A DNA stretch of 11,941 nucleotides, taken from NCBI GenBank assembly GCA_016840855.1, contig JAEORO010000231.1, positions 1 to 11,941 of the forward strand. The letters are read 5' to 3'. This DNA is from Candidatus Thorarchaeota archaeon (GTDB lineage Archaea; Asgardarchaeota; Thorarchaeia; Thorarchaeales; Thorarchaeaceae). The notes under the pieces were generated by a model. That model did not search any database and was not told the DNA's origin. It was given only the letters and a program-made list of their open reading frames with translations. The first letter of the stretch is position 1, and the number at the start of each line of letters is the position of its first letter. The position numbers and the translations under genes are program-made. Below are positions 911 to 11,841 of the stretch, in pieces.

Positions 911-933
911 TAGTGGACCACATTTGATTCAAA
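911..933 (-). repeat. Degenerate tRNA-Ala 3'-end copy (putative att site, type B-like)
   Basis: TAGTGGACCACATTTGATTCAAA, 16/23 to type B consensus TGGTGGACCGGGCGTGATTCGAA. Intergenic, with a purine-rich left flank like the other copies. Confidence 0.6.
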
Positions 934-951
934 TTATCTGTCATGAAAAAT

Positions 952-1647
952 CTAATTCTGGGTTCGCGATGCACTGAGCCTGTTGTGCATCTCTACTATT
1001 TCTCTCTTCATCTCATCTGAGAATTCGACAATCAACTTGTCTTTCAGTTCCTTAGTAAGTTCCTCTCCTGCAGCGATTTTCTCTCCCGCAAGTTTTACAG
1101 CATTAAGAAAATCTGAGAGCTGCTTCTTTCCCCTTTCATAGAACAATAACTGCGCAGCTGGAAGAAAGATAGGTAGTGCCATTGGATAGAGGGCTCTCAC
1201 TATATCGAAGTTGCTCGTGTCAGGGAATCCACATGTCGCAGCCAAAACCATGCGTGGAAATCTACGTATTCTACCTGGGTGCCGTGTTTCTCCATCATGA
1301 TTCACCATCTCAGGAAGTGTGAATACAAAGGTCCGTTCCAACAACTTCTGTAAATAGTGAGTCACGTTGCGACCATAGATTGGTGTGCCAAATAGCATCA
1401 CATCTGCATCTGCAATAGCAGGCAGGATTTTTTCCATATCGTCCTTTTGTACACACTTGCCAGGCGTGACCCACCAGCAGTTGAAACATCCACGGCATCC
1501 ATTAATATCTAGGTCGACGATGTGATATTTTTCAACATCTGCCCCCGACAATCTTGCTCCCTCAATGAATGTTTCTAACAGCACATCTGTCGTGCCATTG
1601 GATTTTCTAGGACTGGCATTGAACACTAGAAGCTTCATGTACTGCAC
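952..1647 (-). CDS. Iron-sulfur flavoprotein / NAD(P)H-dependent FMN reductase (flavodoxin-like fold)
   Basis: N-terminal FNASPRKSNGTT FMN-binding loop, CRGCFNCW-x5-C cysteine motif followed by DDM, and ADVMLFGTPIY. True start may be the ATG at 1638. Confidence 0.9.
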   Translation of the reverse strand: MQYMKLLVFNASPRKSNGTTDVLLETFIEGARLSGADVEKYHIVDLDINGCRGCFNCWWVTPGKCVQKDDMEKILPAIADADVMLFGTPIYGRNVTHYLQKLLERTFVFTLPEMVNHDGETRHPGRIRRFPRMVLAATCGFPDTSNFDIVRALYPMALPIFLPAAQLLFYERGKKQLSDFLNAVKLAGEKIAAGEELTKELKDKLIVEFSDEMKREIVEMHNRLSASRTQN

Positions 1648-1722
1648 CAGCTGTTCTCTTCCTTATAGGTTACAGGTCTAAGCAATACTTTTGTCTTGAA
1701 AGATTTGCCAAAGATAACCAAG

Positions 1723-1745
1723 TGGCGGACCGGGCATGATTCGAG
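1723..1745 (-). repeat. tRNA-Ala 3'-end copy (putative att site, type B)
   Basis: TGGCGGACCGGGCATGATTCGAG, 20/23 to type B consensus; intergenic. Confidence 0.85.
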
Positions 1746-1849
1746 TTCGCCACGATTTCTCTCTTAGTGATTTAAGAAACGATTGAACGGATGATTATTA
1801 ACCAACAGCGGATATTGTAGTTCCGATTGGCTAGGGAAAAGGGGCTGTC

Positions 1850-3307
1850 TTGATGAAACGACGCGAACTGCTTGTAGTTACATCTTTTGTACTCGCGCTT
1901 TTGCTAGCTTCGCTCTTGTATCTTGCATCACAAGGATTTTGGAATAGTACAACTGATTCTTCGCCTGATATAATCATACATAATGGTCAAATCCTGACTA
2001 TGGAGCAATCTCCGGCGCAAGTTGAGGCAATAGCCCTCCAAGGTGAGTATATTGTCGCCGTAGGCAGCGAGAGTGATATCCTCACGATGGCAAGCGCAAA
2101 CACCCAGTTCATTGACCTAGAAGGAAGGACACTCCTACCGGGTTTCAATGATGCTCATTCTCATCATATAGGTGACCGGAGTTATGTGAACCAATCATCG
2201 TCAGAGGAAGTGATTGAATCACTACTTAGTTTAGGATGGACTAGCATCTCAGAACTCTTTGTGAATCAAGAACGTTTGGATGGGCTCATATCTTTGGATC
2301 AACAGGACAACCTTCGCATTCGTGTAAATGCCTATCTTCCACTAAGCTGGCAGTTTGAGAGGTTCGGTGATTGGTATCTGACCTATCAACCCGGCCAGGA
2401 ATACAGTTCAAAATTAAGGATAGGAGGTGTGAAGATCTTTATGGACAGTTGGTATACCAATCCACTTCATTACTTTTCTCAAGCCGAACTGAACTCATTA
2501 GTGCAACAAGCTCATGACGATGGATTTCAGATTGCTATTCACAGTGTAGTAGATAACTCTACAGACATTGTTCTAAACGCTTTAGAATCAGCCTTGGATG
2601 GACAATCAAATCAACAATACCGACATCGAATTGAGCACCTTGTCCTACTCAGAAACGACCAGATACAGAGAATTGCTGATCTAGGAATTTTAGCCTCTTT
2701 CCAACTCACTTGGATTAATTCAGACTGGATGGAAGCAGTATCATGGCCGGTCTTGCAGAATTACTCACACCTTGCAGGTAGATGGAGAGATATTCTTGAT
2801 GCAGGGATCCCCTCACTTGGGAGTACCGACTATCCCTGGATTTTTGGTACAGAGCGATCAGTCATGTCTGTGATTTCGAGTGCCGTAACTAGGGTTGGTG
2901 AACTCGGACTCACGCCGTCAGATTGGATGTTAAACCAGACTATTAATGTAGAACAAGCTCTACGACTACTAACAATCGACGCAGCTTATGGGACATTCCA
3001 GGAGAACGTGAAGGGGAGCATCAAGGTGGGCAAATTTGCAGACCTAGTAATTCTTTCAGATAATCCTTTAACAGTTCCAGAAAATACTCTTGCTGAAATT
3101 GAAGTACTAATGACAATGGTGGGTGGGATTGTGGAATACACTGCTCCCGGACATCAGTTTCTATCGGCAGGTTGCGTGGGCGCCATCAGTCAAACGACGG
3201 AAAAAACAAACCCACTGATCAAGATGGAGATGATAGACACTCCGAATAAGAATGAGGAGTGGCGGACCGGGCTTGATGCGATTACCTTCATTTGGAGTTA
3301 TTCCTAA
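1850..3307 (+). CDS. Metal-dependent amidohydrolase (YtcJ-like, Amidohydro_3) with N-terminal signal peptide or membrane anchor
   Basis: Motifs IDLEGRTLLPGFNDAHSH, QIAIHSVVD, RHRIEH, GSTDYP and KGSIKVGKFADLVIL; basic then hydrophobic N-terminus. Confidence 0.9.
   Translation: MMKRRELLVVTSFVLALLLASLLYLASQGFWNSTTDSSPDIIIHNGQILTMEQSPAQVEAIALQGEYIVAVGSESDILTMASANTQFIDLEGRTLLPGFNDAHSHHIGDRSYVNQSSSEEVIESLLSLGWTSISELFVNQERLDGLISLDQQDNLRIRVNAYLPLSWQFERFGDWYLTYQPGQEYSSKLRIGGVKIFMDSWYTNPLHYFSQAELNSLVQQAHDDGFQIAIHSVVDNSTDIVLNALESALDGQSNQQYRHRIEHLVLLRNDQIQRIADLGILASFQLTWINSDWMEAVSWPVLQNYSHLAGRWRDILDAGIPSLGSTDYPWIFGTERSVMSVISSAVTRVGELGLTPSDWMLNQTINVEQALRLLTIDAAYGTFQENVKGSIKVGKFADLVILSDNPLTVPENTLAEIEVLMTMVGGIVEYTAPGHQFLSAGCVGAISQTTEKTNPLIKMEMIDTPNKNEEWRTGLDAITFIWSYS
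3260..3282 (-). repeat. tRNA-Ala 3'-end copy (putative att site, type B) inside the 3' tail of the amidohydrolase ORF
   Basis: TGGCGGACCGGGCTTGATGCGAT, 19/23 to type B consensus; ends about 20 nt before the stop codon of the convergent gene. Confidence 0.8.
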
Positions 3308-4428
3308 TCACTTTCAAACTGAACGCATCTTACTCCTCCCTTAAGTCCAGCTGCAAAACAACGGTTACAGGATATGCATCTAGCAATCTCTTGCGTCCCT
3401 ACTTTTGCTTCTTCAGTCCACCGACGCAGAAGTGCTGGTTCACTGATTATAGGACGACTAAGCTGAATTACGTCGAAAGCAGCAGCTAAATCTCCATTCC
3501 CCGTTAGTAATTTGATAACAGTCTTTGGAGACCGGATACCACCCACCAAACCGAATAAGAGACCACTATCATGTACAGTGGAACGGATAACCATTGCATC
3601 ACCCAAAAAATATGCATCTTCCAAATCTTTTGGTTTCTGAGTTGGGTTTGGACCACTGAATATCACACAATATGCGCCTGCTTCAGCCAGTTTCTTTGTT
3701 AGCTCGCCTACTTCTTCGGGTTTGACGGTGTCAGAGCTTGAATCTACCTTTACTTGGATTGGAATATCAACTGTGTTTTTGATAGCTCGCACAGCATCCA
3801 CCATTGCTTTGCTGCGTCCTTCAATTGATGTTCCTGTATACGGGTCATTCTCTGGGCGATGATTATACGATGGATCAAAGAATTGCCAAAGACCATAATG
3901 ATGAGCTCCGTGAAGCTCAATCACATCAAACCCTGCACTTTCTGCCCGTTTCGCCGCATTTGCATAAGCCTGAGTGACCTCTTCGACGTGGTCTACTGTC
4001 ATCGCTTTTACCTGAACACCTTCTCCCTTAAGACCAGAAACTTCCATCTCACTGGGACCAAATATATCGTTGCCAGAATATTTGGGCAAACTCTTACACC
4101 CACAATGCACCAATTGAGCCGCTGCTAAACCCCCTGATGAATGAATTATTCCTGCTAAGCGTTTTAGACCCTCAACATCTGTGGGCTTTGAATTCGAGAT
4201 CATCCGCCGAACTGACTGTCCCTCTTCCATCACATATTGAAAACCAGTCACCACGATACCCGCTCTGATTTTACTATATGTTTCGAAGATGGTGTTACTG
4301 CAAGTTCCATCTTCTTCTGCCTGCCCCATCCAAGTAGCAGCCCGCATTATTCGGTTGGAGGCTTTCACTCCATTTGGAAGTTCAAATTCCTGAAGCACTG
4401 TACTCTCCCAGGTTTTCTGGTCTACCAT
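3304..4428 (-). CDS. NADH:flavin oxidoreductase (Old Yellow Enzyme family)
   Basis: Motifs NRIMRAAT, AQLVHCG and AGFDVIELHGAHHYGLWQF, plus a C-terminal CISCNRC-x11-C motif. Confidence 0.92.
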   Translation of the reverse strand: MVDQKTWESTVLQEFELPNGVKASNRIMRAATWMGQAEEDGTCSNTIFETYSKIRAGIVVTGFQYVMEEGQSVRRMISNSKPTDVEGLKRLAGIIHSSGGLAAAQLVHCGCKSLPKYSGNDIFGPSEMEVSGLKGEGVQVKAMTVDHVEEVTQAYANAAKRAESAGFDVIELHGAHHYGLWQFFDPSYNHRPENDPYTGTSIEGRSKAMVDAVRAIKNTVDIPIQVKVDSSSDTVKPEEVGELTKKLAEAGAYCVIFSGPNPTQKPKDLEDAYFLGDAMVIRSTVHDSGLLFGLVGGIRSPKTVIKLLTGNGDLAAAFDVIQLSRPIISEPALLRRWTEEAKVGTQEIARCISCNRCFAAGLKGGVRCVQFESD

Positions 4429-4461
4429 TAAATCAGCTCAAATCCCAAGTCACATGACCCG

Positions 4462-4467
4462 TATATA
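4462..4467 (-). promoter_or_regulatory. Putative archaeal TATA box for the OYE gene
   Basis: TATATA about 34 nt upstream of the ATG at 4428, inside the unit boundary. Confidence 0.5.
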
Positions 4468-4494
4468 GGCTTGATGTGATAGACTCGGAAAAAA

Positions 4495-4517
4495 GTTTGG
4501 ACCGAGTGGGGTTCGAA
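4495..4517 (-). repeat. Degenerate tRNA-Ala 3'-end copy (putative att site, type A-like)
   Basis: GTTTGGACCGAGTGGGGTTCGAA, 17/23 to 11765-11787; intergenic, A-rich left flank. Confidence 0.75.
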
Positions 4518-4550
4518 CACCAACATTCTCTCGTCAGAATGGATTACTTC

Positions 4551-5060
4551 TTACAGACTATATTTCTCATGGATTCCTTCGATTTCTACTACAATTTCTT
4601 CATAGTGTGCAATCAGATCAGGTTTCCCAGATTGAATTGCGTGAGATTTTGCCTGATCGAGCAATGCAAGAAGAGCTGTTGTTTTTTCAACAATCTCAGG
4701 ACCTAGCTTTTGCTGTTTCTTGGGTTTTTCGTTATATTTGGCGATTGTCTTCGCGATACTCTGTCTTTCTTTTGAAATCTTCTTGTCCATGTCCAATGTT
4801 ATCATCTTGTCCAGTTTTTCAAGAGAGTCTTCTTCAGCATCAGCAACTGGAGTTGGTTCCTTTTGTTGAGTTGAGAGTCCAAGAACTCGTTTCAGATCAT
4901 CTCGGAAGAAACTGATAAGGAACCCTATGAAGATGACAACAACTCCCGCAAGAAAGCCCTCTAAGCTGGATAACAGATAAGCGATGATACTCACAATGAC
5001 GAGAATTACAATGAGTACTATTAGTCCTTTCCAAGAGAAACTGTTAGATTCGCTATTCAA
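4551..5060 (-). CDS. Hypothetical membrane protein: 2 N-terminal TM helices and a charged helical C-terminal domain
   Basis: 169-aa ORF (TTG start) filling the interval between two repeats; hydrophobicity pattern. Confidence 0.75.
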   Translation of the reverse strand: MNSESNSFSWKGLIVLIVILVIVSIIAYLLSSLEGFLAGVVVIFIGFLISFFRDDLKRVLGLSTQQKEPTPVADAEEDSLEKLDKMITLDMDKKISKERQSIAKTIAKYNEKPKKQQKLGPEIVEKTTALLALLDQAKSHAIQSGKPDLIAHYEEIVVEIEGIHEKYSL

Positions 5061-5198
5061 TGCATTCTCACAAAGTGCACTAGGTGTGGTTTGATTTAAC
5101 TATGTTTCTAGGATTCTGAAGGCTGATTTGAACCTTTCAAGAACTAAAGGGATGACAATCGTTTCTCAGTTAGTTGTTGTGATATTTTGAACAAAGAG

Positions 5199-5221
5199 TG
5201 GTGGATTGGGTGAGATTGGAT
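5199..5221 (-). repeat. Degenerate tRNA-Ala 3'-end copy (putative att site, type A)
   Basis: TGGTGGATTGGGTGAGATTGGAT, 18/23 to 11765-11787; ends 6 nt from the stop at 5227. Confidence 0.8.
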
Positions 5222-5226
5222 TGTTC

Positions 5227-5988
5227 TCATGAGCATCTTCTACGATGATAGATTACCGCTACTAATAGAAAAACACCTGCTACACTGAAAGTTATGAGAG
5301 TAATCGCCAATCCCAAATTGATATTGTTCCAACTCTGAATCAGTGGAAGAATGTTTGTATCATTCAGTGTTTCTAACACTGATACTTCTGCATTGAGAAC
5401 ACTACGATTGGTTTCAATCATTAAGATAATCCCTGTCTGTTGATCATAATACCGATTCATCTGATTCCCCGTCGAGAATACATTTTCAGTCATCCAACAT
5501 ATTCGCGTGGTGGGCAAGCAATCAAACTTTAGCGGTCCAACAGATACAGGATATTCATTTGTTTCATACATCGTGTTAATCGCCGTACTCTCGTTTGTTT
5601 TAGTTGAAATCCAGAATGCTATCTTCTTACTCACTGGATATCCCTCAATCTCAGAGCCATTTGGGTGAAATGCACTCAGAATAAATAATGAATCTCTATC
5701 GACTATCAATCTCCCACCACCGGGAATAATGGTAAACGATTCAGTAGTGGAATTGAAAATCAGACCATGGGAGCGAATTTCAATCTCGATAGTACTTGGT
5801 TCCACTGATGTTATTTTCCAATACAACTCATAGGTATCACCATTTGAGAACTCCTGTTTGTACTGAGCATATGAACCAATATCCAAGAACTCAGGAAGAC
5901 CTGCTTGATTCTGTGATAGAATTGGATGTGGCTGCGTCAGAATGATAGAACAGATGAGAATGAGTAAGAGAAAACGAATCGACATCAC
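5227..5988 (-). CDS. Hypothetical secreted/cell-surface protein with C-terminal membrane anchor
   Basis: N-terminal signal peptide, several N-x-S/T sequons, C-terminal TM helix followed by HRRR. GGAGGTG lies next to the start (ATG at 5985 or GTG at 5988). Confidence 0.8.
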   Translation of the reverse strand: MMSIRFLLLILICSIILTQPHPILSQNQAGLPEFLDIGSYAQYKQEFSNGDTYELYWKITSVEPSTIEIEIRSHGLIFNSTTESFTIIPGGGRLIVDRDSLFILSAFHPNGSEIEGYPVSKKIAFWISTKTNESTAINTMYETNEYPVSVGPLKFDCLPTTRICWMTENVFSTGNQMNRYYDQQTGIILMIETNRSVLNAEVSVLETLNDTNILPLIQSWNNINLGLAITLITFSVAGVFLLVAVIYHRRRCS

Positions 5989-6044
5989 ACCTCCATGTTA
6001 TATTTACATGGAATAGGAAAAGAGTTTCGAACAAAGAAATGAAA

Positions 6045-6067
6045 TGGTGGACTAGGTGGGATTTGAA
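6045..6067 (-). repeat. tRNA-Ala 3'-end copy (putative att site, type A)
   Basis: TGGTGGACTAGGTGGGATTTGAA, 21/23 to 11765-11787. Confidence 0.9.
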
Positions 6068-6075
6068 AACCTGTG

Positions 6076-6089
6076 TATAAAGATTATAA
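6076..6089 (+). promoter_or_regulatory. Putative TATA box(es) for 6130..6669
   Basis: TATAAA (6076-6081) and TTATAA (6084-6089) just right of the repeat; GAGG Shine-Dalgarno-like motif at about 6113. Confidence 0.45.
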
Positions 6090-6129
6090 CCATTCAATAC
6101 ATCTTTGGATTTGAGGTTTCGTTAATTAG

Positions 6130-6669
6130 ATGGGTTCCGAACCTTTGTTTGAAGGAACTTTGAGAGGGTCTACTATCTCAAAAGCGATTCTAGGTCTTTC
6201 CTTTGTTCTGCCATATCTCATTGACTGGTTGAATAGGAGTAGTTATCCTCATCTAATGATTTATGCACCAACTTGGCTACTGCTTGAAAGCGAATGGGAA
6301 TCTTTCATAGGACCCACTCCCATGGCTTTACTCATGTTTGCCTATTGGCTACCATATACCTATGTGGGATTTCAATCATACAGGTTCTCGAAAGGAAAGT
6401 ACTCAAGCGTCAATCGCTATGTTGTTGGAGTCGTTTTTGTTACCTCTCTAGCAATCTTATTGACAATTCCCTTGATGATATCTCCATCAGTTTGGGAAGA
6501 TGGAAGAGTTTTCCATTCCACTGTGATTCCACTACCGCTGGTTTCGATTTTGGCTTTGCTATTAATACCAGTTCTGCGCCCAGTTTTGCTACTATCGCCA
6601 TGGGAAGACGTTAAAGAGAATGTTTTCTCGCGCAATGATTCAATGAATTCAGAACGAAGTATTGATTGA
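6130..6669 (+). CDS. Hypothetical polytopic membrane protein (about 4 TM helices)
   Basis: 179-aa ORF with ATG start and several hydrophobic segments; stop 10 nt before the next repeat. Confidence 0.75.
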   Translation: MGSEPLFEGTLRGSTISKAILGLSFVLPYLIDWLNRSSYPHLMIYAPTWLLLESEWESFIGPTPMALLMFAYWLPYTYVGFQSYRFSKGKYSSVNRYVVGVVFVTSLAILLTIPLMISPSVWEDGRVFHSTVIPLPLVSILALLLIPVLRPVLLLSPWEDVKENVFSRNDSMNSERSID

Positions 6670-6679
6670 AACGAATAAA

Positions 6680-6702
6680 TGGTGGACCGGGCGTGACTCG
6701 AA
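6680..6702 (-). repeat. tRNA-Ala 3'-end copy (putative att site, type B)
   Basis: TGGTGGACCGGGCGTGACTCGAA, 22/23 to type B consensus and 19/23 to the resident tRNA. Confidence 0.9.
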
Positions 6703-6715
6703 GGATGTGATTAGC

Positions 6716-7153
6716 CTAATGATCGTCTGATGTAATGGTTTCCCAAAGTTTCGACAAATACATTGAGGTTAGCCAGAAACCCACGAGAGAAAAGATCAAG
6801 CCAAGTGGAATTGCAAAAGGTCGTAGGTCTGATCCTACGAATCCAATTACAAATGCATAGATAGATGGTATAGCAGCAAAAGTGTACATGAGAACAGCTG
6901 GACCCATGATGTTATTCGACTCGACTCTTTTTCTAAAATGACGATATGACAGGTAGATGAGTAGAATCTCGATGGGCATCAAAATAATCATCAACCATGA
7001 AACAGCATCAGGTAGATTATTACCAGCAGGAAGTTCGGATTCTGGTATTAGGAGTACAATGAAAATCATTACAATGGAGTAGAATAAAATCAGAATTCCT
7101 AGTAGTCTGGCTTTTCTGAGTGATGACATACTGTTGGGATGTTCAGAATCCAT
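6716..7153 (-). CDS. Hypothetical membrane protein (4 TM helices)
   Basis: 145-aa ORF with four hydrophobic segments; BRE/TATA-like GAAAACTTAAA on the minus strand at 7189-7199. Confidence 0.78.
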   Translation of the reverse strand: MDSEHPNSMSSLRKARLLGILILFYSIVMIFIVLLIPESELPAGNNLPDAVSWLMIILMPIEILLIYLSYRHFRKRVESNNIMGPAVLMYTFAAIPSIYAFVIGFVGSDLRPFAIPLGLIFSLVGFWLTSMYLSKLWETITSDDH

Positions 7154-7219
7154 TATACATCCACCAATCTCAGTAAGCAGGGCTTCAGTTTAAGTTTTCA
7201 GTATCTAATAGCGAAGTAG

Positions 7220-7242
7220 TGGTGGACCGGGTGGGATTTGAT
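7220..7242 (-). repeat. tRNA-Ala 3'-end copy (putative att site, type A)
   Basis: TGGTGGACCGGGTGGGATTTGAT, 22/23 to 11765-11787. Confidence 0.93.
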
Positions 7243-7248
7243 ATAATA

Positions 7249-7287
7249 GGAAAAGAAGGGGGGGCTCGATTCAAGTTAAGCCCCTTT
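7249..7287 (-). terminator. Possible terminator for the 7760-to-7309 operon
   Basis: GGGGCT (7261-7266) and AGCCCC (7279-7284) form an inverted repeat, followed on the minus strand by the pyrimidine tract CTTCTTTTCC. Confidence 0.4.
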
Positions 7288-7308
7288 GCGAATCGACATT
7301 TTATAAAA

Positions 7309-7497
7309 TCAAGCAACATTGCTCTTACCGCGCGAACACATTATAGCACCTATGGTCACGAAGATTAAAAGTCCGAGTAGAATCACTAGAAACGGGTCAA
7401 TCACACCTAAGCCAAAGTAGTTACACAATATTCCACCAATGACCACGAAGATTGCTATCATAAGCACTATAATTGCTGCTTTATCTCTTAACTGCAT
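7309..7497 (-). CDS. Small membrane protein (2 TM helices)
   Basis: 62-aa ORF with a strong Shine-Dalgarno GGAGGTGA (minus strand, 7504-7511); overlaps the end of the upstream ORF, suggesting translational coupling. Confidence 0.75.
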   Translation of the reverse strand: MQLRDKAAIIVLMIAIFVVIGGILCNYFGLGVIDPFLVILLGLLIFVTIGAIMCSRGKSNVA

Positions 7498-7760
7498 TTA
7501 GAATCACCTCCTGCACATTTGTTTTTCGTATCTATAACTGAAATCTCACTTTTCCTCAAATGCAACCTCAGAAAACCATAACATCCCTTTAGCTCGAGTA
7601 TTTCAGGTTCTATGAATAAGGCGTGTTGCAATTTTCCAAGGGTTCCTTCTATTAGGATGGCATCATTCACGTCTGTTGAGAGAACTGAGAGTCGGTGCCT
7701 GTTACAAGTGAGTTCGATTGAGAAGTCACACTCACCGTTTTCATTTTCTTGGTTGTTCAT
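7488..7760 (-). CDS. Small hypothetical protein, probably beta-rich
   Basis: 90-aa ORF with ATG start, divergent from the regulator. The FSIEL...ILIEGTLG...ILELKG..G.LRL pattern resembles archaeal hypothetical proteins (from memory, not searched). Confidence 0.7.
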   Translation of the reverse strand: MNNQENENGECDFSIELTCNRHRLSVLSTDVNDAILIEGTLGKLQHALFIEPEILELKGCYGFLRLHLRKSEISVIDTKNKCAGGDSKCS

Positions 7761-7809
7761 CTCTTGTTCCTCGAAACAATAGGTGCTAGATATTTTTGAT
7801 AAGCTTTAA

Positions 7810-8625
7810 TTGACAAGTTTGCGAAAGATTTTGGATAGGTGCGAAATTATTACTACGCCAAACAATGAAGATGAAGAAGAGATCTCGAAGGTTCTCTTTG
7901 AACTTGCAAGTAACCGAAGAGCAAGTATTCTCTTTGAGGTGGAAAAGAAGAGTCTCAAGATGCAACAAATAGCTAAATCTTTAGACATGAATGTCACTGA
8001 AACCTTCAGGCATCTGCAGAGGCTCAGTAATGCAAAACTTGTTGAGAAACAAGTTGACGGCACCTATGCAACAACTTCCTTGGGCACTCTGACGATTGGT
8101 CTTCTCTCAAGTCTGAATTTTGTTTTGAAACATGGAAACTTCTTCTTGGGCCACGATGTTTCTTGTCTTCCATATGAGTTTGTTAACAGACTTGGCGAGT
8201 TGGAAGATGCAGAGTTTTGTGGAGATACAGTGACCACCTTAAATCGGGTCAGAGAGATTGTTTGTGAGGCAAATGAGTACATTTGGACTATGGCCGAGCA
8301 AGTTGATTCTACTAATGTTAATACTGTGAACGAGCAGGTGGCGAAAGGGCTTGATTTCCGTTTCATTATGCAGGAAGAACTTGCAAGAACTATCAAAATC
8401 ACACCTGAGTTTGAGCACCTGAAACAAAGGAAATCTCTCGGTCGTGTGTGTCTCACTCTCCTAGTCACTGATAAGGAGGCGTCCATTAGTTTACGCAGAC
8501 ATAGCGGAGAAACGGATTACATCGGTTTTATCGGAAAAAATGAAAGATTTCGTAAATGGACCCGAGACCTATTCAATTACTACTGGGAAAGAGCTGAACC
8601 ATGGTATCGAGGCATGCAGAAATAA
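7810..8625 (+). CDS. Archaeal transcriptional regulator: ArsR-like winged HTH plus DUF1724/FilR1-like C-terminal domain
   Basis: LFELASNRRASIL...MQQIAKSLDMNVTETFRHLQRLSNAKLVEKQVDGTYATTSLG winged HTH, HDVSCLPYEFVNRLGEL linker, and C-terminal FRKWTRDLFNYYWERA. Start uncertain. Confidence 0.85.
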   Translation: MTSLRKILDRCEIITTPNNEDEEEISKVLFELASNRRASILFEVEKKSLKMQQIAKSLDMNVTETFRHLQRLSNAKLVEKQVDGTYATTSLGTLTIGLLSSLNFVLKHGNFFLGHDVSCLPYEFVNRLGELEDAEFCGDTVTTLNRVREIVCEANEYIWTMAEQVDSTNVNTVNEQVAKGLDFRFIMQEELARTIKITPEFEHLKQRKSLGRVCLTLLVTDKEASISLRRHSGETDYIGFIGKNERFRKWTRDLFNYYWERAEPWYRGMQK

Positions 8626-8682
8626 TAGCTGCCATTTAATTCAGCGATAACTGCATTATCTCACAAATCAGAAAGAATTGGA

Positions 8683-8705
8683 TGGTGGACCGGGTGGGAT
8701 TTGAA
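8683..8705 (-). repeat. tRNA-Ala 3'-end copy (putative att site, type A, perfect)
   Basis: 23/23 identical to 11765-11787. The left flank also contains TCAGAAAGAA, as does the tRNA trailer. Confidence 0.95.
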
Positions 8706-8725
8706 GTGGGAATACGTCCGATCTA

Positions 8726-8735
8726 TTTTTTTTTT
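8726..8735 (+). terminator. Oligo-T tract, possible archaeal terminator
   Basis: Run of 10 T about 100 nt downstream of the regulator stop codon. Confidence 0.35.
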
Positions 8736-8816
8736 GCGTAAAATTGTGGGCCAAGCAAGATTTGATATTGCAAGAGTATGATTAAGTAACTAGTCCTTGT
8801 TTCGGATGTACGAAAT

Positions 8817-9128
8817 TTGAACAGTGAAGAAGAGGATATCCAAATCGTATTCAATCCTGAAGCTGCAAAATCACTTGGCCTCAAGATTATTGTAATGTTG
8901 GCAGTTTTATTTCTCCCAATTCTTCTCATCTATTGGTTTCAAGAAATTCTGCGACCTTTGTATGGCGATCCTACTCCTCTCTCACCAGTCTATCTAAGCT
9001 TGTTTGCCCTCTTCGTAGGATGTTGGGTGTTTGGATTTGGAATCTTTTTACCATGGGCCGGTAGACGTATCGATGCGTTCATAGAAAGCAAGACTCATTA
9101 CAATAATGATTCAGAATTAGATAACTAA
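8817..9128 (+). CDS. Hypothetical membrane protein (2 TM helices)
   Basis: 103-aa ORF (TTG start) occupying the interval between two repeats; two hydrophobic segments. Confidence 0.7.
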   Translation: MNSEEEDIQIVFNPEAAKSLGLKIIVMLAVLFLPILLIYWFQEILRPLYGDPTPLSPVYLSLFALFVGCWVFGFGIFLPWAGRRIDAFIESKTHYNNDSELDN

Positions 9129-9154
9129 GAGAAGCTGTGTGAGTGAGAGAAAAG

Positions 9155-9177
9155 TGGTGGACCGGGCGTGATTCGAT
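9155..9177 (-). repeat. tRNA-Ala 3'-end copy (putative att site, type B)
   Basis: TGGTGGACCGGGCGTGATTCGAT, 22/23 to type B consensus and 19/23 to the resident tRNA; followed by TATA-like TTTAAG at 9181-9186. Confidence 0.92.
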
Positions 9178-9229
9178 TTGTTTAAGTCTTGGCAACTGAC
9201 ATCTCTCTCGTTGTGGAGTTAGGAAGATA

Positions 9230-9907
9230 ATGAAGACATACATCCTTCTGCCAAGAATGAAACGAGGTATGCTTCCTGAAGAGTTTCAAGATGATGATGT
9301 TAGGTCCGCGGAGTTTCTTTTGGAGTATTTTATCGAGCATTTCACACAACCAGGTGATACTGTCTTCGATCCATTTGCTGGATTTGGTACAACACTCCTT
9401 GTTGCTGAAAGAATGAAACGAATTCCATTCGGCATTGAAGCCGATGAACGACGATATGGGTATACTCGTTCAAAGCTGACAATGAAGGATAACATCATCC
9501 TTGGGGACTCTCGTAAACTGGATACATTTCCCCTACCAAATATAGACTTTGTATTCACCTCTCCCATCTTCATGGGATGTGATGAAACCAAAAACCCTCT
9601 TTCTGGATTCAAGGAGTACGGCACCTATCAGGTATACCTTGACCAGATTCAGGATATATTTCGAAAGTTGGATGCGTTTCTAAACCCAGCAGCTAGGGTG
9701 GTTGTTGAGGTCTACAACCTAGCCCCAAGAGATGGCCGACCGATGACCCTCCTGGCTTGGGATATGACTTATGCGATATCTAAAGTTCTCAGATTCGAGA
9801 AAGAGATTATTGCATGTTGGCAAGGCGTGGATGATGAAAACACCGGTGAAACCCCAATGGGTGTTGGGTATGACCATCACTACTGTCTTGTTTTTGTAAA
9901 AGATTGA
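9230..9907 (+). CDS. SAM-dependent nucleic-acid amino-methyltransferase-like protein (N6/N4 DNA methylase or Trm11-like)
   Basis: FTQPGDTVFDPFAGFGTTL SAM-binding motif I, GDSR, and IDFVFTSPIF at the position of the catalytic SPPY motif. Confidence 0.85.
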   Translation: MKTYILLPRMKRGMLPEEFQDDDVRSAEFLLEYFIEHFTQPGDTVFDPFAGFGTTLLVAERMKRIPFGIEADERRYGYTRSKLTMKDNIILGDSRKLDTFPLPNIDFVFTSPIFMGCDETKNPLSGFKEYGTYQVYLDQIQDIFRKLDAFLNPAARVVVEVYNLAPRDGRPMTLLAWDMTYAISKVLRFEKEIIACWQGVDDENTGETPMGVGYDHHYCLVFVKD

Positions 9908-9911
9908 GAAG

Positions 9912-9934
9912 TGGTGGACCGACCGCGATTCGAA
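9912..9934 (-). repeat. tRNA-Ala 3'-end copy (variant of type B)
   Basis: TGGTGGACCGACCGCGATTCGAA, 20/23 to type B consensus; 4 nt after the methyltransferase stop. Confidence 0.85.
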
Positions 9935-9959
9935 CTCGTACCTTGTGAAAACGAGTTTC

Positions 9960-9985
9960 ACGGAGTCACGCGACCGCCTCCACTT
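9960..9985 (+). repeat. Inverted tRNA-3'-end-like copy
   Basis: Plus strand GAGTCACGC-GACCGCC-T-CCA-CTT. The reverse complement matches the 6680 copy at 14/23, including an exact GCGTGACTC and correctly spaced CCA. Confidence 0.5.
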
Positions 9986-10047
9986 TGGATTTGTGCCAGT
10001 GTTTAGCTTTTGGCAAAGACCTGTTTATCAAAATCATCAATAGTCAA

Positions 10048-10863
10048 TCAATGTTTTCGTGTCAGAATCCCGGTATCAAAATGAAGCATCTGATGTCGGA
10101 CTCTTCTTCTAAGTTTAACACCAGACTTAGAATTCTCAAATATACTTTCACCTGCTAGTATCAAATCGTTGACTAAGTTCTGAGTTTCTATATCTGGACA
10201 ACGTTTAAGCCAATGAGTTAGATTCTCGAGTTCTTTTCGAATAAGTTTCATAACTGTCCTAGTGGGCTTACCATTATCAATAAGATCAACTCTCATCATT
10301 TCCTGACCCAGATAATGATATAATACCTTCAGAGAAATCAATAGAATTCTCCGACATGTGACGAAATCACCTCTTGCATTCCCTGGTCCTCTAAGGGCCA
10401 ATCTTTCTGCTCTACCAGTATAGTACCACTCTATCGGATCTTCATTATGCCCAATCTTCTCAATTACTATTTGACAGAGTTCTATGGGTGTATAGTCTTT
10501 CCTTGATAGGTACATCGTTGCAGATGGCAAACCAGGGATGTCTGTTTTGTCGAATCTAATTGGGAGAATCCCTCCATGCAATACTTTGACAGTATCCGAG
10601 AGTGTAGATCTTTTCTCAATTGTTGGATAGAATTTTTCTGCATAGTGCTTAGAGATGAACATGACACAGTATCTGCAACCATTTTCAAAAACATGGTGAA
10701 GAAACTCCACAAGATTTTCTCCCCACATCTTCGTCGTTTCAAATTCATCGAAAAAAACTTTGACTCCACTATTTCTCAAACAAATAGCGACGTCTCGCAC
10801 ATATTCTCTCTCTTCTCCAGCAAAAGATAGTGCAACATCATATTCTCGTTCTTTATCCTCCAC
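10048..10863 (-). CDS. TIR domain-containing protein (TIR_2-like N-terminus, unknown C-terminal domain)
   Basis: YDVALSFAGEEREYV...LRNSGVKVFFDEF...CVMFISKHYAEKFYPTIE, with Glu at the usual catalytic position, and ILPIRFD. GTG start with Shine-Dalgarno AGGTGA. Confidence 0.9.
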   Translation of the reverse strand: MEDKEREYDVALSFAGEEREYVRDVAICLRNSGVKVFFDEFETTKMWGENLVEFLHHVFENGCRYCVMFISKHYAEKFYPTIEKRSTLSDTVKVLHGGILPIRFDKTDIPGLPSATMYLSRKDYTPIELCQIVIEKIGHNEDPIEWYYTGRAERLALRGPGNARGDFVTCRRILLISLKVLYHYLGQEMMRVDLIDNGKPTRTVMKLIRKELENLTHWLKRCPDIETQNLVNDLILAGESIFENSKSGVKLRRRVRHQMLHFDTGILTRKH

Positions 10864-10878
10864 TCAAATCACCTATTG

Positions 10879-11691
10879 TCATTTATTATCATGAATCTCG
10901 TTTGCTGAAACCGTTTCATTCTCTCCTGTATAATTACTGAATGAAGTTGCCACAGAATCAACTACTCTCTTGTCAATTGATACAATTCCAGTTTCCCACG
11001 TGTCATTCTCGGAATTCCTAGTGAAATTCATTGAAGAAACAATAGCCACTTCATTGTCCACGATGACCAATTTCGAGTGAACTCCCCCTGCACCTCCTTT
11101 CCTCCCGGAATAGTACATGTCAACTCCTTCAGCTATTAGAGTCTTGTGAAACTCCCATCTCTCAGGGTCTCTCTTTGGTCGTCTAGTGATTAGGGAAACC
11201 TCGACTTTTCTCTTTGCAGCGCTACGAAGTGCTGTGCCCAATGTAGCTCCATCCACAAATGGATTGACAACCACAATGCTTGCTTTTGCACGATCCATTA
11301 GACGTCGGGTGATATCTGTGAGATTGGGTCCCTCTAAAAAGAAATGATGATTGTCGAGTGATACATTCACCCCAGCTGTACTAATCCACTGCTTAATCCA
11401 GTCGATATGTTCACTGGTCTGTTCTTTCTCAGGTTTGGTTACTTGTTCCACTGGGTTTGACTGATACTGCCTTTTCAATTCGTGGTCGATAATTCGAAAC
11501 CTTTTGATGCCTTCAATCTCCTCATAGGCGATTGTTTCTGAATTTCTTAGCTCTTTGACTGCCTTTAACATCTGGTTCTGAGAGAGTCCGGACTTTTCTC
11601 GAACATCCTTCCAATGGTCTGCAGCATCAAAGATGATAGCCCGGAGTATTTGGCCTTTCCAGGAGTCCCAGTATTTTGGCTTGTCTGACAT
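10879..11691 (-). CDS. Phospholipase D superfamily (HKD) protein, nuclease-like, with N-terminal winged-HTH-like domain
   Basis: Single HSKLVIVD (HxKxxxxD) motif followed by SSMNFT and ETG; AKASIVVVNPF and VEVSLITR; HTH-like N-terminus (WKDVREKSGLSQNQMLKAVKEL). Confidence 0.85.
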   Translation of the reverse strand: MSDKPKYWDSWKGQILRAIIFDAADHWKDVREKSGLSQNQMLKAVKELRNSETIAYEEIEGIKRFRIIDHELKRQYQSNPVEQVTKPEKEQTSEHIDWIKQWISTAGVNVSLDNHHFFLEGPNLTDITRRLMDRAKASIVVVNPFVDGATLGTALRSAAKRKVEVSLITRRPKRDPERWEFHKTLIAEGVDMYYSGRKGGAGGVHSKLVIVDNEVAIVSSMNFTRNSENDTWETGIVSIDKRVVDSVATSFSNYTGENETVSANEIHDNK

Positions 11692-11764
11692 TTTCTAATC
11701 CCCTACGCACGTGAATTGATTGGATTATCTCTGTAAGAACTCCCTCAAATACCTTCAGAAAGAA

Positions 11765-11841
11765 TGGTGGACCGGGTGGGATTTGAACCCACGACCTCCT
11801 CCATGCCAAGGAGGCATTCTACCAGTCTAAACTACCGGCCC
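11765..11841 (-). tRNA. tRNA-Ala(GGC) with encoded CCA
   Basis: Reverse complement GGGCCGGTAGTTTAGACTGGTAGAATGCCTCCTTGGCATGGAGGAGGTCGTGGGTTCAAATCCCACCCGGTCCACCA. Acceptor stem has G3:U70, anticodon arm is CCTCC-TTGGCAT-GGAGG, T-arm is GTGGG-TTCAAAT-CCCAC. Confidence 0.98.

Follow-up and report, generated by a model that had tools for sequence, protein, structure and literature searches.

The stretch of DNA described here, hereafter the window, is the whole of an 11,941-bp contig (C201) of a Thorarchaeota metagenome-assembled genome (MAG; G000 in our comparison set), an assembly of 3.36 Mb in 259 contigs with 42% G+C, 92% completeness and 6% contamination. Its sole tRNA is an intact, intron-less tRNA-Ala(GGC) on the minus strand at 11765..11841, called by ARAGORN and giving the only match to the Rfam tRNA model (65.5 bits); it has an encoded CCA and the T-arm GTGGG/TTCAAAT/CCCAC, termed type A below. 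This gene anchors an array, in that it is followed by ten 23-nt copies of the tRNA 3' end, all in one orientation, which partition 11 kb; the resulting units measure 0.45-1.8 kb and for the most part contain a single gene. Read in tRNA sense, the 23-mer consists of the T-loop, the 3' strand of the T-stem, the 3' strand of the acceptor stem, the discriminator and CCA. We consider it likely that the window represents a hot spot where the 3' end of tRNA-Ala(GGC) serves as a site-specific target of insertion, and whose cassettes are re-sorted by recombination in the T-arm.

Along the plus strand, the units begin with an NADPH-dependent FMN reductase cassette (934..1722, minus; gene 952-1647, Pfam FMN_red), an amidohydrolase cassette (1746..3259, plus; gene 1850-3307, Pfam Amidohydro_3) and a cassette for an Old-Yellow-Enzyme-type (OYE) NADH:flavin oxidoreductase (3283..4455, minus; gene 3304-4428, Pfam Oxidored_FMN). 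A tRNA-Met-locus block (4456..5198) follows, made up of a tRNA-Met pseudogene on the plus strand (4456-4544) and the minus-strand gene of a 169-aa membrane protein (TM169; 4551-5060). Next come four membrane or secreted proteins and a regulator: a 253-aa secreted or membrane protein (Sec253; cassette 5222..6044, minus, gene 5227-5988), a 179-aa membrane protein (6068..6679, plus; gene 6130-6669), a 145-aa membrane protein (TM145; 6703..7219, minus, gene 6716-7153), a FilR1-like winged helix-turn-helix (wHTH) regulator identified through Pfam, in a unit that also holds two small minus-strand ORFs (7243..8682, plus; gene 7810-8625), and a 103-aa membrane protein (TM103; 8706..9154, plus, gene 8817-9128). 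A DNA methyltransferase of the N6/N4 type (9178..9911, plus; gene 9230-9907, Pfam N6_N4_Mtase) precedes the tRNA-proximal two-gene unit (9935..11764, minus), which encodes a wHTH-PLD nuclease (10879-11691) and a TIR-domain protein (10048-10863). This last pair matches Pfam PLDc_2 and TIR_2, together with the PADLOC models for MkoB/DrmC-like proteins (wHTH-PLD) and PDC-S66 (TIR), and may constitute a two-gene defence module that carries no recombinase; with one weak DNA match in the genus, it is nearly unique there to G000 at the DNA level. The named genes lie in both directions (7 minus, 5 plus). The amidohydrolase ORF is the only one that crosses any repeat of the window: it runs through the 23-mer at 3260-3282, and this repeat together with the adjoining downstream bases supplies the codons for its last ~16 residues.

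The repeats themselves, all on the minus strand, were previously sorted into two families in a note made from these letters alone (hereafter the earlier note), whose coordinates are the starts of the 23-nt units and whose quoted 14-mers begin 9 nt later. At one mismatch or fewer, the type A 14-mer occurs at 6054, 7229 and 8692 and in the tRNA itself at 11774, four matches where 0.01 are expected, a number reached in 0 of 200 shuffles; the type B 14-mer has no exact match in the window and is found with one mismatch at 6689 and 9164 (0.00 expected). Over the full 23 nt, the copy at 8683..8705 is identical to the tRNA end and to the type A consensus, from which 7220..7242 departs at one position and 6045..6067 at two. 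The copies at 9155..9177 and 6680..6702 each show a single mismatch to the type B consensus; those at 1723..1745 and 3260..3282, with three and four mismatches respectively and an end that reads GCCA instead of ACCA, are no more than B-like. The site at 9912 stands at three mismatches from type B and equally from type C, the commonest T-arm form of tRNA-Ala(GGC) in the genus; the degenerate copy at 5199..5221 is five mismatches from both A and C, and its homologue in G005 carries CTCGC; the eroded copy at 911..933 differs from B at seven positions; and the letters at 4495 have at least 16 mismatches to every Ala type.

On these repeats the earlier note proves largely right. Its identification of type A with the resident allele is borne out by the exact copy at 8683, and among the five type A sites that it named 6045, 7220 and 8683 stand, while 5199 is too decayed to type and 4495 belongs to the tRNA-Met pseudogene on the opposite strand. 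Of its type B sites, 9155 and 6680 are retained without qualification, and 911, which it had called eroded, is a true cassette junction by comparison with G005; the supposed type B variant at 9912 is instead the end of a displaced tRNA half. It was also correct that both types keep U70 and that the type B T-stem strand would mispair with the resident gene, CACGC opposite GTGGG giving one mismatch and one G-U pair.

The displaced half occupies 88 nt on the minus strand (9912..9999) and was recognized by comparison with intron-bearing tRNAs of six genomes (G014, G013, G004, G012, G001 and G010). It holds a remnant of the anticodon loop, an insert at 37/38, the T-stem 5' strand GCGTG, a ~31-nt insert at 53/54 and a decayed 23-mer. 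The GCGTG is of type B, being the pairing partner of that type's CACGC, and the whole is, to judge from its make-up, the 3' half of a tRNA-Ala(GGC) that was either an earlier resident or foreign. A ~31-nt insert at the same position, between T-stem and T-loop, is present in the resident tRNA-Ala(GGC) of G014, G013, G004, G012 and G001 (loci L053, at 2519-2632, L040, L046, L057 and L058). There it forms a hairpin whose stem differs between species with pairing apparently kept, as assessed by eye; the 3' exon of these genes equals the 23-mer repeat, and the 3' end of the insert mimics the variable loop and the 5' strand of the T-stem. The insert may be a spliced intron or the leftover arm of a cassette.

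Comparison with related genomes (28 of the genus, that is, G000 and 27 others) places the array at a syntenic position. In the 28 loci mapped, a conserved block encoding tRNA-Phe, AhpC, a membrane protein, a methyltransferase and a TPR protein lies on one side, and tRNA-Ala(GGC), followed by PUA and DEAD helicase genes, on the other; the flanks of the G000 array itself are found on contigs C168 and C5, the latter being the right-hand flank that encodes the PUA protein and the helicase. Relative to these flanks, the array and tRNA of G003 (L036) are inverted with respect to those of G006 (L032).

Within this fixed setting the cassettes themselves are found in other orders and combinations. Parts of the window match all 27 other genomes of the genus at 66-88% identity, and the ends of the matches fall on repeats. 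In G002, for instance, the order is methylase, amidohydrolase, FMN reductase, OYE and TM145. The methylase unit has 85-88% identical copies in G013, G016, G018 and G019, and in five genomes its homology extends from the CCA-side end of one 23-mer to the next, with unrelated flanks; the amidohydrolase match in G006 covers 1723-3288, from repeat to repeat. TM145 is the commonest cassette family across loci (cluster 0, 14 loci), OYE copies at 74-85% occur in 13 genomes, copies of the FilR1-like regulator unit at 72-75% are found elsewhere in the genus, the array of G005 contains an 86% identical Sec253, and TM103 has homologues in G009 and G043. At the 911 junction, G000 and G005 differ by exactly one cassette and one repeat: the left neighbour is shared as far as an equivalent repeat, the FMN reductase cassette present in G000 is absent from that junction in G005, and a different cassette follows. 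On a closed Thorarchaeota chromosome, a 4.1-kb segment bordering a masked stretch contains five fragments, all on one strand, and an independent 2322-nt contig (run X13) covers 5026-7347, including four junctions, with one difference; on these two observations, the arrays are not artefacts of assembly.

Identity at third codon positions, a crude clock, was compared between cassettes and flanking core genes in the same pairs of genomes. Six core genes show 36-62%. The closest cassette copies show 73-76% for the methylase (G013, G016, G018, G019), 78% for Sec253 (G005), 80% for TM145 (G004) and 67-71% for OYE (G002, G004, G014, G016, G042). Taken by pairs, G000 and G018 share 42-49% in four core genes, as against 73% in the methylase, 61% in OYE and 58% in TM145; G000 and G005 share 49-52% in three core genes and 78% in Sec253; and G000 and G004 share 50% in one core gene and 59-80% in four cassettes. 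This pattern speaks for cassettes having passed from one species to another once the species were already separate, and the earlier suggestion of movement between hosts is supported by it, as by the reordered presence of cassettes throughout the genus.

These distributions bear on an explanation of a more conventional kind, in which larger, integrase-bearing viruses or plasmids inserted serially at the tRNA and subsequently lost their integrase and replication modules by deletion. What remains would be cargo between old att scars, and differences among species would reflect homologous recombination and deletion without mobility at the level of cassettes. That elements of archaea and bacteria re-use a single att site in tandem is established (PMC6563490), and scattered partial tRNAs are described in the islands of Prochlorococcus tycheposons (10.1101/2020.12.28.424599). 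In keeping with this, the proximal unit of the window left a long scar of the anticodon-loop type, like those of classical elements, and integrase-bearing elements occur in 8 of the 28 genus genomes, one such element adjoining tRNA-Ala(CGC) on a metagenome contig (L147). Set against it are the size of the units (0.45-1.8 kb, mostly one gene), the recurrence of identical-ended one-gene units beside different neighbours in many genomes, the lack of any integrase fragment in 20 representatives of array ORFs, and the fact that the 23-mers are sharper than the cassettes they bound. We regard accretion followed by decay as unlikely.

Insertion and re-sorting at a defined site, as we favour, makes a demand on where the exchange occurs, and here the repeats are informative. 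In a profile of 61 short fragments from 29 loci, in the choice of which neither the T-stem columns nor the trailer played any part, information content stays close to zero through the base that precedes the T-loop, is high across the next 23 nt, and in the ~6 pyrimidine-rich trailer bases after the CCA still amounts to 0.4-1.1 bits. A scan of metagenomes, which returned 80 of at least 120 loci, yielded mostly ordinary tRNA-Ala genes of other organisms and two useful contigs, L147 and L172. The latter belongs to the same locus by its flanks and carries one 1.5-kb unit between GCGAG-loop-CACGC on the proximal side and GCGTG-loop-CTCGC on the distal side. These hybrids are a reciprocal pair of products of an exchange between C and B T-arms, which places the crossover in the T-loop. 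The proximal junction sits on a displaced tRNA half and not on the live gene; insertion at internal repeats, proposed for the window in the earlier note, thus finds its example in the B/C hybrid T-arms of this contig and not in the window itself. Variants of the T-loop travel with the cassette lying on the T-loop side, A54 being present in every methylase unit and A57 in every TM103 unit, while the adjacent strand of the T-stem differs from genome to genome.

Tyrosine recombinases typically act at a core site in which a symmetric stem flanks a 7-nt spacer, the sequence of which has to be the same in both partners. We propose that small units devoid of an integrase, mostly of one gene, are inserted and re-sorted at the T-arm core by a crossover in the T-loop, and that each event would leave a 23-nt copy extending from the T-loop through the 3' strands of T-stem and acceptor stem to CCA, with a short pyrimidine trailer. 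Position 57 of the T-loop is linked with stem type at 8 of 8 clearly typed sites (the tRNA counted; 9912, 5199 and 911 left out), a linkage that would fit A (TTCAAAT) and B/C (TTCGAAT) sites not recombining with each other. The A/B mismatch at this position, within the presumed overlap, would make the two poor partners and sustain two coexisting lineages of sites; B and C, both with the loop TTCGAAT, could recombine. The recombinase would act in trans and be encoded outside the array.

Several observations weigh against this account. No integrase domain was detected by Pfam in the 16 window ORFs or in the 20 array ORF representatives, and G000, at its 92% completeness, gave no match to PF00589, PF16795, PF00239, PF01548, PF01797 or PF01867, a set that covers tyrosine and serine recombinases, IS110-type and Y1 transposases and Cas1. 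PF00589 matches are present in only 8 of the 28 genus genomes, none beside an Ala array, and the one tyrosine recombinase of the closed chromosome, at a distance of 650 kb from the array there, is without a homologue in the 28 genomes. At third positions, certain copies of cassettes have diverged as far as the core genes have, namely the methylase in five genomes (46-56%) and the FMN reductase in two (40-42%), although these are probably distant copies or paralogues. Since B and C are a single base apart, B could have arisen from C by point mutation. Farther from the tRNA than the displaced B-type half there are type A repeats, an order that simple growth at the tRNA alone cannot give. Lastly, excision is not demonstrated by the population evidence, which consists of contigs only (Logan environmental contigs): in run X1, one joint connects 5217 to 9146, skipping 3928 bases, and a back-joint connects 9910 to 6064 via 19 fragment-like letters, as expected of a circle or a permuted array, but these joints stem from a ~90%-identical relative or an unplaced source and show that cassettes occur in other orders in the environment without proving excision.

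The missing enzyme also invites a reading that dispenses with one, in which the 23-30-nt repeats are short anchors of homology for the general recombination system of the cell, and DNA acquired from sister species is exchanged through crossovers at them. The lack of a match to any known recombinase family in G000 agrees with this, as does the failure of the repeats to fold as single-stranded DNA: hairpins of 7 of 7 window repeats are no better than those of shuffles (z -0.19 to +1.68), so that the repeats are not attC-like. So, too, do the 20 of 28 genus genomes that have no PF00589 match, even of the Xer type, some of them 93-97% complete. General recombination would, on the other hand, also delete arrays of direct repeats, and both the sharp left boundary at the first T-loop base in the 61 fragments and the clean reciprocal pair of L172, exchanged inside a 7-nt loop, resemble the action of a fixed cleavage site. 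MAGs, moreover, often lack mobile elements, which makes the absence of a recombinase weak evidence and a trans-acting integrase on an unbinned element the simplest guess. General recombination without a dedicated enzyme is, in our estimation, quite unlikely.

As for candidates, the 20 array ORF families tested are enzymes, transporters or membrane proteins without known function, and G000 has one TnpB-like gene. The wHTH-PLD protein was considered as the array enzyme and rejected, as it is not conserved in the genus at the DNA level and resembles defence nucleases. A scan of IMG/VR for an attP-like 22-mer gave seven loci, all of them tRNA genes in phage tRNA clusters and irrelevant here. The small tyrosine recombinase beside tRNA-Ala(CGC) on L147 shows that enzymes of this kind occur next to tRNA-Ala genes in such samples, and is a lead and nothing more.

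The coexistence of A and B in one array raises the question of their source. The earlier note took B to be the tail of another tRNA-Ala, and proposed looking for such a gene with an array downstream. None of the 42 tRNAs called by ARAGORN in G000 ends in type B, and elsewhere in its contigs there is no type B copy nearer than the CGC gene, at two mismatches. The exact type B 23-mer does, however, end the tRNA-Ala(GGC) of the congeneric G006, and that gene anchors an array with homologues of the amidohydrolase, methylase and TM145 cassettes of the window; it also ends an intron-bearing tRNA-Ala-like gene of G003 that ARAGORN mislabels. (The intron mode of this program mislabels several genes, and anticodon names are kept here only where the sequence supports them.) Genus-wide, the T-stem 3' strand of tRNA-Ala(GGC) takes at least six forms (CTCGC, CACGC, CTCGA, CTCGT, TTCGC and CCCAC), which arrays commonly mix; that one genus should hold so many alleles suggests that insertions keep rewriting the gene, at a cost to the host. 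We infer from these comparisons that A and B are alleles of a single tRNA-Ala(GGC) T-arm, A being the present resident allele and B that of the sister species G006 and G003. B was probably also the allele of an earlier gene in the G000 lineage itself, given the GCGTG of the displaced half.

The identification of B as the tail of another tRNA-Ala allele is in this way upheld, and the condition under which the earlier note would have been refuted, namely that no tRNA of this lineage or of co-occurring taxa has the type B end, does not hold. What is probably mistaken in the note is one of the sources it offered, the isoacceptor loci, in the version of which B would be the tail of G000's own TGC or CGC tRNA-Ala and cassettes would shuttle between these genes. 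There are real resemblances: the acceptor strand and CCA are common to all three tRNA-Ala genes, the TGC genes of G001 and G012 have the CACGC stem and match B at 22 of 23 positions, a 23-mer identical to the end of the CGC gene lies inside the GGC array of G004, and one block from another tRNA locus did enter the Ala array, as detailed below. B's G57, however, fits the GGC genes of G006 and G003 at 23 of 23 positions, whereas the TGC genes have A57, and the CGC gene of G000 is unlike B at 2 of 23; the TGC gene of G000, which lies outside the assembly, could still be a source. Nor do these loci hold arrays: no Ala-type fragment was found in ~18 kb downstream of tRNA-Ala(TGC) in 2 of 2 genomes examined (G001 and G012), none follows the CGC gene of G000, and the CGC genes of G022 and G024 have one fragment each. 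Shuttling between isoacceptor loci is very unlikely on this evidence.

For type A, a 28-mer was traced in 13 of 251 sampled genomes of the phylum and in 0 of 16 other members of the genus; among 10 tRNAs read from other genera, its carriers are TGC (7) and CGC (3) genes and never GGC. A recent import of type A was considered but not adopted. The gene of G007 shares the 5' half of the G000 gene (70 of 77 positions identical).

Movement between tRNA loci, claimed earlier for Ala isoacceptors, does have one instance of another kind. The plus-strand sequence at 4456-4544 aligns to the tRNA-Met(CAT) that precedes the TM169 gene in other genomes, where the two abut in G004, G006, G007 and G018 and are 0.8 kb apart in G022. 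This alignment indicates that a block consisting of tRNA-Met and its adjoining gene was copied into the Ala array, and the absence of an Rfam match for 4456-4544 indicates that the tRNA copy has since decayed.

Among the closest known systems are the tandem tRNA islands of tyrosine integrases, in which likewise the 3' part of a tRNA is duplicated with each insertion, the intact gene remains at one end, and re-use of the site gives rise to arrays; a symmetric T-stem around a 7-nt T-loop as core is a further likeness, seen on L172 and not in the window. The T-loop is reportedly one sublocation of integration within tRNA genes, as Williams is said to have described in 2002 (NAR 30:866). Unlike such islands, no unit of the array and few of the genomes contain an integrase, the units are single genes of ~0.5-1.5 kb as opposed to islands of 5-100 kb, and they are re-sorted among species. 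The tycheposon islands of Prochlorococcus (10.1101/2020.12.28.424599) are similar in being tRNA-anchored islands of flexible genes with partial tRNAs, with newcomers that push older elements inward and with cargo for defence or niche adaptation. Each tycheposon, however, brings a recombinase of its own, a tyrosine recombinase in 910 of 937 and otherwise a large serine recombinase, often with replication genes. The array ORFs tested include no such recombinase or replication module, and partial tRNAs are far denser here, at about one per kb.

Integrons, which have been reported in Archaea (Ghaly et al. 2022, PMC9668308), offer a different likeness: a fixed chromosomal platform and a row of mostly one-gene cassettes, bounded by sites and shared or reordered between genomes. 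They differ from the present array in that no IntI lies beside it and its sites are tRNA tails without hairpins of the attC type; and because its genes run in both directions, a common promoter is not implied, again unlike integrons. She et al. are said to have described in 2001 (Nature 409:478) an archaeal 'gene capture' by SSV-type integrases, where attP is situated within the integrase gene, which is split so that its halves lie at the borders. That process, too, traps archaeal elements at tRNA genes between repeats of tRNA fragments, but G000 has no match to PF16795 or PF00589, and no int(N) or int(C) halves were found at the window junctions. The locus, then, works like tandem accretion at a tRNA T-loop and like tycheposons, with an outcome like that of an integron, and yet it departs from all three in the feature that defines each, since no recombinase was found adjacent to it or borne on its elements; from integrons it departs also in attC hairpins and cassette orientation. 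Searches of the literature, including PMC8813620, PMC9897764, PMC6563490 and 10.1101/2020.12.28.424599, the supplements of which might hold examples, brought up no account of arrays like these from Asgard archaea.

The phenomenon is not confined to alanine. A blastn-short search of G000 showed that other tRNAs are accompanied by 20-26-nt copies of their own 3' ends, spaced at 0.3-1.8 kb (contigs C209, C225, C161, C249, C100 and C127): six fragments lie behind a Leu/Ser-like tRNA (C209) and two behind a Cys tRNA (C225), and Met, Glu, Asp, Val and Gln tRNAs are also represented. One may speculate, though we hold the proposal as a whole to be rather doubtful, that Thorarchaeota capture and exchange cassettes throughout the genome by means of a system that fills the role of an integron but is built differently. 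In such a system, the tails of many tRNA genes from T-arm to CCA would serve both as docking sites and as cassette boundaries; one-gene units would circulate among species; the sequence of the T-loop would set the pairing and so create several site lineages per array; the recombinase would act in trans and fall outside the families searched, perhaps as a new one; and the ~31-nt insert at 53/54 would be a domesticated remnant of a cassette arm. On the reading favoured above, the locus itself is a fixed chromosomal platform: at a tRNA tail of 23 nt, accessory genes come and go one at a time, change their order and move from species to species, among them genes for redox enzymes, hydrolases, membrane proteins, a DNA methylase and a TIR/PLD defence pair. 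A new enzyme, should it prove to be one, would represent a small site-specific recombinase whose target is universal and predictable.

Two minor observations may be added on tRNA ends and fragments. An encoded CCA ends 41 of the 42 tRNAs called in G000 by ARAGORN, the exception being an implausible call with a 1157-nt intron. Contig C110 of G004 carries fragments in both orientations.

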